NCBI GenBank assembly: GCA_043747295.1
Contig: JAYTPK010000168.1
Location: 9,121 to 73,120 of the forward strand
Length of the DNA: 64,000 nucleotides
Direction: 5' to 3'
From: Polaromonas sp.
GTDB taxonomy: Bacteria; Pseudomonadota; Gammaproteobacteria; Burkholderiales; Burkholderiaceae_C
Shown: in pieces, positions 59,982 through 62,946 of the stretch
Position numbering within the stretch: the first letter of the stretch is position 1
Layout: the number at the start of each line of letters is the position of its first letter
Position numbers and translations under genes: made by a program
Notes under the pieces: generated by a model
What the model was told of the DNA's origin: nothing
The model's input: the letters and a program-made list of their open reading frames with translations, nothing else
The model's database searches: none

Positions 59982-60704
59982 ATGTCAGATCAACCCAAAC
60001 CCGATACCAACGCTAATTTAGGCGCTGATAATGCCGCGGCAAGCGCCGCCAAGGAAGCCGCCGACTTAGTGGGCCAAGACCTGGCCGCACATGCCAGAGA
60101 CTTGGCCGCGCGCGCTAATGACTTGGCCGCGCGTGGTAATGACTTGGCTGCGCGTGCCAAGGCCGCTGGCGTGCCCGCTGATGCCTCACCTGAAGAAATC
60201 GAAGCCGCCCTGGCGGCCAACGAGTCTGAGGCCGTTGATGAGCTGACCGTGGCGCTGGCCGAGGTAGCCACCCTCAAAGCCAAAGCGGCCGACCTGCAAG
60301 ACCAATACATGCGCGGCCAAGCCGAAGTACAAAACGCCCGCCGCCGTGCTGAAGACGAAGTGTCTAAAGCCCGCAAATTCGGCGTAGAAAGCTTTGCCGA
60401 AAGCCTGCTGCCAGTAGCTGATTCATTGATCGCAGGTCTGGCCATCAAAGATGCCACGATTGAGCAAATTCGCGAGGGCGCCGAGGCTACCTTGCGCCAG
60501 CTCACCAGCGCGCTAGAGCGCAACAAAGTCATGACGATTGACCCACCGGCTGGCGAGAAATTTGATGCCCACAAACACCAAGCCATCAGCATGGTGCCTT
60601 CTGAGCAAGAAGCCAACACCGTGGTGAGCGTGCTGCAAAAGGGCTACACCATAGCGGACCGCGTTCTGCGGCCTGCTTTGGTTACCGTTGCAGCGGCTAA
60701 GTAA
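59982..60704 (+). CDS. grpE: nucleotide exchange factor GrpE
   Basis: [41 protein letters not shown] and [14 protein letters not shown] are GrpE motifs. The N-terminus is long and repeat-bearing. Confidence 0.95.
60075..60158 (+). repeat. four tandem 21-nt (heptad) repeats in the grpE 5' coding region
   Basis: QDLAAHA / RDLAARA / NDLAARG / NDLAARA. The DNA units AATGACTTGGCCGCGCGTGGT are nearly identical. Confidence 0.85.
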
Positions 60705-60726
60705 TTTTTAAAGGTTTTTAAGACAT

Positions 60727-60913
60727 TTTTTGAACGCAGAGGGCGCAAAGGTTGCGCAAAGAGCGCAGAAGAAGACAAAGAAAATACAAAAAAAGAAAAC
60801 CAAAAAGTACAAACTTATTCAATTAAATTTACTAAATTTTCTCTTTTTTGTATTCTTTTTCTCCCTCTTTTCTGCGTTCTCTGCGCAACCTTCGCGACCT
60901 CTGCGTTCAAAAA
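60727..60913. repeat. 187-nt imperfect palindrome (about 75-nt arms, 37-nt AT-rich loop) between grpE and dnaK
   Basis: The left arm is TTTTTGAACGCAGAGGGCGCAAAGGTTGCGCAAAGAGCGCAGAAGAAGACAAAGAAAATACAAAAAAAGAAAA. The right arm, TTTTCTCTTTTTTGTATTC...TCTGCGCAACCTTCGCGACCTCTGCGTTCAAAAA, matches its reverse complement. Confidence 0.85.
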
Positions 60914-60925
60914 CTCTTAAAACCC

Positions 60926-60953
60926 CTTGCAATCCACCATCTCATCCACAAAT
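60926..60953 (+). promoter_or_regulatory. sigma32-like heat-shock promoter for dnaK
   Basis: CCCTTGCAA -35, 13-nt spacer, then CCACAAAT against consensus CCCCATnT. It lies just downstream of the palindrome. Confidence 0.35.
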
Positions 60954-60984
60954 ACATACCATTCAAAATTTAGGAGTAAAAATC

Positions 60985-62946
60985 ATGGGCAAAATCATTG
61001 GCATCGACCTAGGCACCACCAACAGTTGCGTTTCCATCATGGAAGGCAACGTCACCAAAGTCATTGAGAACTCAGAGGGCGCACGCACTACGCCGTCTAT
61101 CGTGGCTTACCAAGAGGACGGTGAAGTGCTAGTGGGCGCGTCGGCCAAGCGCCAAGCGGTGACTAACCCCAAGAACACGCTGTACGCGATCAAGCGTTTA
61201 ATCGGCCGCAAATTCACCGAAAAAGAAGTCCAAAAAGACATCGGCCTAATGCCCTACAGCATAGTCGCTGCCGACAACGGCGACGCATGGGTAGAAGTGC
61301 GCGGCAAGAAAATGTCGGCCCAGCAGGTGTCAGCTGATATCTTGCGCAAGATGAAGAAAACCGCCGAAGACTATCTAGGCGAGACCGTCACCGAGGCCGT
61401 GATTACCGTGCCCGCGTACTTTAACGACGCGCAGCGCCAAGCCACCAAAGACGCGGGCCGCATTGCGGGCCTGGACGTAAAGCGCATCATTAACGAGCCT
61501 ACTGCAGCCGCATTGGCTTTTGGCTTGGACAAAAACGAAAAAGGCGATCGCAAAATTGCCGTGTATGACTTGGGTGGCGGTACGTTTGACGTGTCAATCA
61601 TCGAGATTGCTGATGTCGACGGCGAAAAGCAGTTTGAAGTGTTATCCACCAACGGTGACACCTTTCTGGGCGGCGAAGATTTTGACCAGCGCGTCATCGA
61701 GTTCATCATCGCTGAGTTCAAAAAAGAGCAAGGCGTTGATTTGGGCAAAGACGTGCTGGCCTTGCAGCGCCTGAAAGAAGCCGCAGAAAAAGCCAAAATC
61801 GAGCTGTCCAGCAGCGTGTCTACTGACATCAACCTGCCCTACATCACAGCCGATGCGTCTGGCCCTAAACACCTGAGCATCAAAATGACCCGCGCCAAGC
61901 TGGAAAGTCTGGTCGAAGAACTGATTGAGCGCACCATTGCACCGTGCCGCACCGCCATTAAAGACGCTGGCGTGGCTGTGGGCGATATTCACGACGTGAT
62001 TTTGGTGGGCGGTATGACCCGCATGCCTAAAGTGCAAGAAAAGGTCAAAGAGTTCTTTGGCAAAGAAGCTCGCAAAGACGTGAACCCGGACGAAGCTGTG
62101 GCCGTAGGCGCTGCGATTCAAGGCCAGGTTTTGAGCGGCGACCGCAAAGACGTGCTGCTGCTCGACGTCACGCCACTGTCACTGGGTATCGAAACCCTGG
62201 GCGGCGTGATGACCAAGATGATCACCAAGAACACCACTATTCCAACGAAGTTTGCACAAACCTTCTCGACTGCTGACGACAACCAGCCCGCAGTAACCAT
62301 TAAGGTATACCAAGGCGAGCGCGAGATGGCCAGCGGCAACAAGTCACTCGGTGAGTTCAACCTAGAAGGCATCCCGCCATCAGCGCGCGGCACGCCACAG
62401 ATTGAAGTGTCGTTTGACATTGACGCCAACGGCATTTTGCACGTGGGTGCCAAAGACAAAGGCACTGGCAAAGAAAACAAAATCACCATCAAAGCCAACT
62501 CTGGTTTGTCTGAAGAAGAAATTCAAAAGATGGTGAAAGACGCTGAGCTGAACGCTGCCGACGACAAGAAAAAACTCGAACTCATCCAAGCGCGCAACAC
62601 AGCCGATGCACTGGTGCACAGCACCAAAAAAAGCATGACTGAGTATGCTGACAAGCTGGAACCCGCCGAGAAAGAAAAAATCGAAGCTGGCCTAAAAGAC
62701 TTGGAAGAAGCCATCAAAGGCGAAGACAAAGACGCCATCACGCAAAAGCAAGCCGCGCTGGAAATTTCAGCCCAAAAACTGGGCGAGAAAATGTACGCCG
62801 ACATGCAAGCCCAGCAAGCCGCTAATGCAGCCGCCACGGGTGCAGCAGGCGCGGATGCCGGTGCTGACGCAGAAGCAGCGGCTAAAGCCAAAGCCAAAGA
62901 CGACAACGTGGTGGACGCTGAAGTTAAGGAAGTTAAAAAGGGCTAA
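60985..62946 (+). CDS. dnaK: molecular chaperone DnaK
   Basis: [16 protein letters not shown] start after a GGAG RBS, plus [11 protein letters not shown] and [13 protein letters not shown]. The 85-codon upstream extension in the track ORF reads through the palindrome and is rejected. Confidence 0.98.

Follow-up and report, generated by a model that had tools for sequence, protein, structure and literature searches.

What is the long palindrome that separates grpE from dnaK, does it act on the dnaK transcript from its place just upstream of the promoter, and is it peculiar to this locus at all? A sequence-only reading of the window (the whole 64,000-nucleotide stretch of DNA that was analysed) had drawn attention to the palindrome and had offered several explanations: an RNase III processing site, a strong terminator or insulator that uncouples the two genes, or a MITE with very long terminal inverted repeats. 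We examined the structure of the locus, its copies elsewhere in the genome, and its counterparts in related genomes.

A long hairpin fills the grpE-dnaK spacer

The grpE gene (59982-60704, forward strand, 240 aa) ends with a TAA stop at 60702-60704, and dnaK (60985-62946, forward strand) has its true start at ATG 60985, preceded by an AGGAG ribosome-binding site at 60972-60976. Between them lies a palindrome with a left arm of 77 nt that is 74% purine, a right arm of 72 nt that is 75% pyrimidine, and a loop of 38 nt with an A+T content of 84%. A repeat finder resolves the palindrome into 44-nt outer arms with 91% complementarity (60727-60770 and 60870-60913) and 20-nt inner arms with 85% complementarity (60774-60793 and 60844-60863), and the complementarity continues outward into 60710-60724 and 60914-60928. 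The 281-nt spacer folds into one long hairpin on either strand, at -95.3 kcal/mol on the forward strand (z -11.8) and -115.6 kcal/mol on the reverse strand (z -11.6), and none of 200 shuffled spacers folds as well. Folded alone, 60727-60913 reaches -85 kcal/mol with 65 inter-arm pairs. On both strands, T6 lies before the stem and A5 after it.

Read from left to right, the element begins with an outer flank, AAAGGTTTTTAAGAC (60710-60724), which is the complement of 60914-60928, and a left core arm (60726-60770) that opens with TTTTTTGAAC and continues with four CGC-punctuated purine units, CGCAGAGGG CGCAAAGGTTG CGCAAAGAG CGCAGAAG, whose CGC triplets are spaced 9-11-9. The A-rich left inner arm (60767-60803) consists of GAAAATACAAAA- or GAAAACCAAAA-type units and has a copy-specific length; the central AT-rich loop (60804-60841) contains TTTACTAAATTTTC; and the T-rich right inner arm (60842-60873) is built of TTTTGTATTC units. 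The right core arm (60870-60913) is the reverse complement of the left one, and the outer right flank, CTCTTAAAACCCCTT (60914-60928), overlaps the start of a -35 box. This box is part of a putative sigma32-like dnaK promoter, assigned by consensus (60926-60954, forward strand: CTTGCAA at 60926-60932, a 13-nt spacer, and CCACAAATA at 60946-60954), which adjoins the element downstream, is conserved in the genus, and is present in outgroups that lack the element.

An open reading frame beginning at TTG 60730 would add 85 residues to the N-terminus of DnaK. Because stop codons are impossible in purine-only or pyrimidine-only tracts, this extension is an artefact; a coding reading of the element as a whole was likewise rejected, as its open frames follow from composition and the number of units varies between copies. 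The description given by the sequence-only reading is thus borne out: the purine-rich and pyrimidine-rich arms around an AT-rich loop, their place between the grpE stop and a sigma32-like promoter, and the spurious nature of the 85-aa extension all hold, and the fold that it proposed as a check yields a single long hairpin (z about -12 on either strand). As a separate feature of the locus, the N-terminal region of grpE (window 60085-60165) contains 3-4 tandem 21-nt repeats that encode DLAARAN, DLAARGN and DLAARAK heptads.

The palindrome belongs to a dispersed repeat family

BLAST of the element against its own Polaromonas-like genome (3.8 Mb in 349 contigs) returned 92 matches in about 50 intervals, which resolve into 32 full elements of 160-350 nt; several further elements are cut by contig ends, and the total comes to about 35-40 copies, with 71 occurrences of the arm pattern. 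The other genomic copies that the sequence-only reading had suggested looking for are therefore present. All 32 full copies lie between genes, and most have a co-directional neighbour at 10-60 nt on each side. In every copy the arm starts with a highly conserved core, TTTTTTGAACGCAGAGGGCGCGAAGGTTTCGC, followed by further CGC-punctuated purine units, a variable number of GAATACCAAAA-type units, and a copy-specific AT-rich centre. The palindrome at grpE-dnaK is a gene-less ('foldback') copy of this dispersed family, the arms of which are inverted arrays of ~9-nt CGC-punctuated purine units; the stretch at 60726-60770 is the part common to all copies.

The closest paralogue of the grpE-dnaK copy lies at C280:3758-3949, with 81% identity in the opposite orientation, and its inner part scores 39 against a paralogue mean of 19, a likeness that suggests recent duplication or conversion between the two. 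A search of Rfam returned sub-threshold matches to plant miRNA hairpin models only, which are generic long-hairpin look-alikes, and BRE, considered as an identity for the element, is a different repeat of ~90 bp. The family accounts both for spurious N-terminal extensions such as the 85-aa 'DnaK' one and for assembly breaks at these repeats.

One copy carries a GxxExxY gene in the trp operon

In each genome one element bears a gene, and all other copies are gene-less. In the genome of the window this element (C12:4204-4759) has a 400-nt centre that holds the sole PF13366 match (C12:4307-4654), flanked by the same core arm as that found at grpE-dnaK. The encoded protein scores 137.5 bits against TIGR04256, 'GxxExxY protein' (cut-off 35), and matches TIGR04256 and PF13366 only, which sets it apart from GIY-YIG proteins. 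Across the genus, the gene is present as a single copy in 17 of 19 genomes, invariably between trpE and trpG and on the strand of these two genes (G001, G014 and G009 among others), while the two genomes with no PF13366 match are just 88-89% complete. The ATG of the GxxExxY gene and the stop of trpE overlap (GAATGA), and the left arm is contained in the GxxExxY ORF, which gene callers render as 164 aa with an N-terminal tail ...LNAEDAKDSQRTQKE....

Assignment by Pfam and NCBIfam, together with a putative catalytic motif E66, D106, E116 and K118 (E...D...ExK) that is invariant in 28 homologues, places the protein in the PD-(D/E)XK superfamily as a predicted nuclease. A PDB sequence search with the protein found no relative, and an AlphaFold model built from 28 close homologues reached a pLDDT of 44, too poor for use. 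The function of PF13366 is listed as unknown (PMC3424549), and a full-text literature search on GxxExxY, PF13366 and TIGR04256 found no paper connecting the family with repeats. PF13366 / GxxExxY is a large family with members in both bacteria and archaea. The trp locus offers a testable link between this family and a repeat.

Gene and repeat co-occur across genomes

All 18 other genomes of the genus contain the repeat family, whereas a search of six other genera of the bacterial family found it in none. We also sampled the bacterial family evenly, with 121 genomes from 120 genera. Seven of these have PF13366, once each, and every time inverted arrays of 31-55 nt with the same design frame the gene. 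Five of the seven lie outside the genus; in four of them the gene is at trpE-trpG and in one between urease genes, and all five genomes hold multiple copies of the arm that flanks their gene, arranged as close inverted pairs (41, at least 74, 6, 40 and at least 74 arm matches, the value of 6 coming from the fragmentary G061). A generic arm pattern, CGCRRAGRNCGCNRARRWTNCGC, is found in 5/7 gene-positive genomes (71, 97, 77, 101 and 2 occurrences) versus 0/114 gene-negative ones (Fisher p = 1e-7), although such p-values overstate the case because related genomes are not independent, and gene-negative genomes could hold variant arms invisible to this pattern. The remaining two gene-positive genomes have variant arms, which are multi-copy too. 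A first, degenerate pattern run against all species genomes was too loose in those of high GC content; it did show paired inverted matches.

At the level of the order, the PF13366 gene is found in 42/251 genomes. Inverted arrays of 8-9 nt units lie directly at the gene ends in at least 20 of 30 PF13366 loci (AACCGCGGAGGCGCAGAGGCGCAGAG and ACCACAGAGACACAGAGGCACAGAG are examples), with scores of 38-74 compared to 14-25 for control flanks, and five genomes, from four further families, hold multiple copies of their gene's arm. The pattern is that of a single-copy gene framed by a genome-filling repeat, with strict co-occurrence in the 121-genome sample. Leaving mechanism aside, we are fairly confident in the identity of the grpE-dnaK element and in its link to the GxxExxY gene.

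Copies persist at fixed sites

In five outgroup genera the grpE-dnaK spacer is 84-160 nt long and keeps the sigma32 promoter without any palindrome, in agreement with the earlier view of the palindrome as an inserted element. Of 18 species of the genus, 16-17 have the element here; the insertion is old and has become fixed in the genus, immediately upstream of an intact sigma32 promoter. The only species without it, G012 (L046), has a spacer of 105 nt in which the promoter is kept, together with AAGGTTTTTGAAAAACTCT, a 13-nt mini-palindrome that matches the outer stem base of A-type copies (see below). This remnant looks like the footprint of a central deletion, that is, of loss, a point beyond what the dnaK tree can prove.

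We used flanking sequence to locate six other sites of the window's genome in five species. Of 27 assessable combinations of site and genome, 26 contain an insert of comparable size, and the one empty site is that of G009 at the C280 locus. Retention is therefore not special to dnaK, as six unrelated sites are equally retained, and such occupancy (26/27) in species that share 80-91% dnaK identity gives no hint of recent movement.

Arms are rewritten in place

Although the sites are shared, the arms that occupy them are specific to each genome. At grpE-dnaK three arm types can be distinguished, A (GAACGCAGAGG...), B (GGACGCGAAGG...) and C (GGACGCAGAGG..CGCAAAAG), along with more AT-rich variants, and in every arm variant the CGC triplets are invariant at 9-11-9 spacing. 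Genome-wide counts of A/B/C arms are 58/4/2 in the genome of the window (G000), 0/68/0 in G007 and 10/0/92 in G010, and the grpE-dnaK copy is nearly always of its own genome's dominant type. The six other orthologous sites follow the same rule, with B arms in G007 and G009 and A arms in G014. A genome's arm type is usually also the type that flanks its GxxExxY gene: the arm core at the dnaK site differs from the gene-flanking arms of its own genome at 5.0 of 39 positions, and from those of other genomes at 9.0 (permutation p = 5e-5). The sister species G001 and G016, joined with 100/100 support in the dnaK tree, show this most clearly, as their dnaK-site loops align over ~108 nt while their arms read CGCAGAGG and CGCGAAGG, respectively, on both sides, each like the flanks of the species' own GxxExxY gene.

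The interiors of the copies carry a different record. In its inner part, the G000 copy shows a specific likeness to the copies of G007 (score 37) and G004 (35.5) versus a paralogue mean of 19. A 14-mer in its loop is unique in the genome; TTTACTAAATTTTC in this loop, which occurs nowhere else there, is found in the orthologous copy in G007. In G014 (L036), the corresponding sequence aligns with window 60767-60873 at a score of 52 when reverse-complemented versus 16.5 when direct, so the interior, comprising inner arms and loop, is inverted in that species, which implies recombination between the two outer arms. The two arms also change together: among 13 orthologous copies 90.5% of arm cells pair, and both sides have changed in 28/48 pairs, a number reached by none of 500 shuffles and compared with 6-14 for slid controls.

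Taken together, orthologous sites and interiors, genome-specific arms, and the flipped interior argue for homogenisation in place and not for fresh insertion. Copies are fixed at orthologous sites and their outer arms are rewritten to the type of their own genome, a case of concerted evolution, while the interior can invert between the arms and the element can be lost by central deletion. As the dnaK tree is too poorly resolved to serve as a species tree, we claim neither the direction nor the number of arm-type switches.

Arm populations can also outlive or mismatch the resident gene, as seen in G003, G012 and G016. G003 has C-type copies and D-type gene flanks, and 26-40 A-type arms occur in G016 and G012, which lack the protein clade found with such arms in G000, G014, G017, G004 and G005; in G016, 40 A-type arms exist beside a gene flanked by GGCCGCGAAGG-type arms. 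These mismatched arms may be relic populations or may reflect relaxed specificity. About 40 sites shared across species, each with genome-specific arms, make up a natural experiment of rare clarity, in which the genus separates spread by jumping from homogenisation in place, a point relevant to REP-like elements generally.

Explanations for the element at dnaK

The palindrome might have been co-opted as an RNA device, in which a ~65-bp hairpin in grpE read-through transcripts acts as an RNase III site, a stabiliser of the 3' end of grpE mRNA or a transcriptional insulator and uncouples grpE from the sigma32-driven dnaK transcript, a role compatible with an origin in the repeat family. A long, stable duplex is predicted, placed precisely between the stop of grpE and the promoter of dnaK and kept there in nearly all species of the genus, and most copies of the family lie between co-directional genes and so are probably transcribed. 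There is precedent as well in Correia elements, which RNase III cuts, and in REP and ERIC elements, which stabilise the mRNA upstream of them. However, retention is just as high at the six unrelated sites, and the species that lost the element kept its promoter. Complementarity in relatives is no argument for an RNA role at dnaK because every copy shows it, and the covariation of the arms is explained by both arms tracking the genome-wide consensus. Of 22 copies between co-directional genes, 17, the grpE-dnaK copy included, form the more stable fold on the antisense strand (binomial p = 0.017, mean gap 5.4 kcal/mol), which has G-U pairs where the sense strand has A-C mismatches. This antisense-biased folding argues against selection for an mRNA hairpin. 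The strong terminator put forward in the sequence-only reading finds no counterpart at all, as a promoter and terminator scan returned 0 sites and the U-run lies before the stem instead of after it, unlike the GC-rich stem followed by a U-tract of an intrinsic terminator. Nothing singles out grpE-dnaK, where the promoter is intact and one species does without the element, and we regard an RNA device as quite unlikely. A classical MITE, namely a deletion derivative of an insertion sequence that is moved in trans by a conventional transposase acting on long terminal inverted repeats, comes nearest among the earlier proposals, in that the expected further copies exist. They are short, non-coding, intergenic and multi-copy with long inverted termini (32 copies, core arms ~45 nt), and one longer element that shares these termini bears a gene. 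This gene, however, is PF13366 and no known transposase, and the two Y1 (IS200/RAYT-like) genes of the genome have unrelated flanking repeats. Target-site duplications were found neither at the flanks of the 32 copies nor in filled-versus-empty comparisons at C280 (G009 empty) and grpE-dnaK (G012), where flank divergence limits resolution; with 26/27 sites occupied there is almost no insertion polymorphism of the kind that recent movement would leave, and arm types change in place. With no target duplication and no transposase, the element is not a classical MITE, an origin that we consider very improbable. The other genomic copies point instead to a nuclease-linked repeat system and away from a dnaK-specific device.

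For this nuclease-linked system we tentatively propose, with somewhat less than even confidence, that the GxxExxY protein recognises the arm arrays and that cutting or binding there provokes conversion from other copies. Recombinational repair from those copies would amount to ectopic gene conversion, which would keep the roughly 70-100 arms per genome homogeneous and would allow arms and protein to change in parallel. Loss of the gene from full elements would have given rise to the gene-less copies. A stronger version, in which GxxExxY proteins are site-specific nucleases that cut the arrays framing their own genes at dozens of fixed sites and so drive ectopic gene conversion, is more doubtful. 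If true, it would describe a homing-like process without transposition, whereby dispersed palindromes are rewritten whenever the nuclease and its flanks change, and it would provide both a new mode of repeat-family persistence in bacteria and a function for a large uncharacterised protein family. The GxxExxY gene could, on the other hand, be a conserved passenger of one copy. It is also conceivable, if unlikely, that the arrays are bound or cleaved by a domesticated GxxExxY protein that serves the cell, for example in the control of recombination or transformation (as in Ssn/NTS) or in chromosome organisation, with homogeneity maintained by selection at each site. The gene is indeed single-copy, vertically kept and translationally coupled within the trp operon in at least five genera, the sites persist for long periods, every variant keeps its CGC units in helical phase at 9-11-9, and Ssn/NTS offers a published precedent (PMC11893778). 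Yet each switch of arm type would require at least eight coordinated substitutions at dozens of sites, which is implausible by point mutation under selection, and arm populations unmatched to the resident gene persist in G003, G012 and G016. The element at dnaK is most likely a tolerated passenger, and any effect on grpE read-through transcripts would be a by-product.

Comparison with known systems

Like the Correia elements of Neisseria and the ERIC MITEs of enterobacteria, the copies described here are short non-coding palindromic repeats of intergenic regions that are probably co-transcribed with their neighbours and could form long RNA hairpins. They differ in having no sequence or Rfam relation to these elements, no TA or other target duplication, no IS parent, and no observed insertion polymorphism. 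A further parallel is found in the intervening sequences of 23S rRNA, where genes for the PF05635 'S23p' four-helix bundle lie within inverted repeats that form a long stem in the transcript; here too a small gene of unknown role is enclosed by inverted repeats, although protein family and host site differ. The single PF05635 gene of the window's genome (C62:22340-22830) is itself framed by inverted arrays of short units (ACAGGTTACAGG / CCTGTACCCTG...CCTGTACCCTG). Dispersed gene-less copies of its flank were not found in that genome, and the gene was rejected as a member of the hairpin family, its flanks being single-copy.

REPIN-RAYT systems combine REP doublets with a REP-associated tyrosine transposase (PMC3116915, PMC3337134, bioRxiv 10.1101/2021.07.10.451892). 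The present system resembles them in its single-copy, vertically inherited gene flanked by an inverted repeat that populates the genome as hairpin doublets, in the co-occurrence of gene and repeat, and in repeats that are intergenic and lineage-specific with long-lived positions. In contrast to REPIN-RAYT, the enzyme is assigned to PD-(D/E)XK (PF13366) and not to the HUH Y1 transposases, and the arms are tandem CGCRRAGG-type units of ~9 nt at 9-11-9 spacing with no GTAG or CGTC tag, whereas a REP is a 20-40 nt hairpin with a tetranucleotide tag (GTAG). The elements are also longer (190-350 nt), the left arm lies inside the ORF, and the arm type is rewritten at orthologous sites. A RAYT was rejected as the parent of the family: the two PF01797 matches, on C331 and C100, are flanked by GGGTCAGGTCTCCC... 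and GGGGTCAGATCAAATTT and not by this hairpin family. With unrelated repeats beside both Y1 genes, the hairpin system does not qualify as a RAYT system. These two Y1_Tnp (RAYT-like) genes (C100:7044-7921 and C331:1285-2240; 240 and 299 aa) are each framed by an inverted repeat of their own. Of the associated sequences, GGGGTCAGATCAAATTT occurs ~8-17 times in the genome and may be a small separate REP-like family, and GGGTCAGGTCTCCCATTTCCC occurs 3 times.

The Ssn / NTS-SRM systems consist of GIY-YIG site-specific ssDNA nucleases framed by the repeats that they cut (PMC11893778). Common to both is a small nuclease-family gene flanked on both sides by a many-copy hairpin repeat, in an association that extends across phyla with specificities that vary by lineage (PMC11893778). 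The nuclease superfamily and the design of the repeat differ. A literature search found no paper describing this hairpin-repeat / GxxExxY system. The system works like REPIN-RAYT and Ssn/NTS while departing from the defining features of both, and the present case contributes the strict co-occurrence count, the conserved master copy in the trp operon with its arm inside the ORF, and the site-by-site evidence that arms are rewritten in place.
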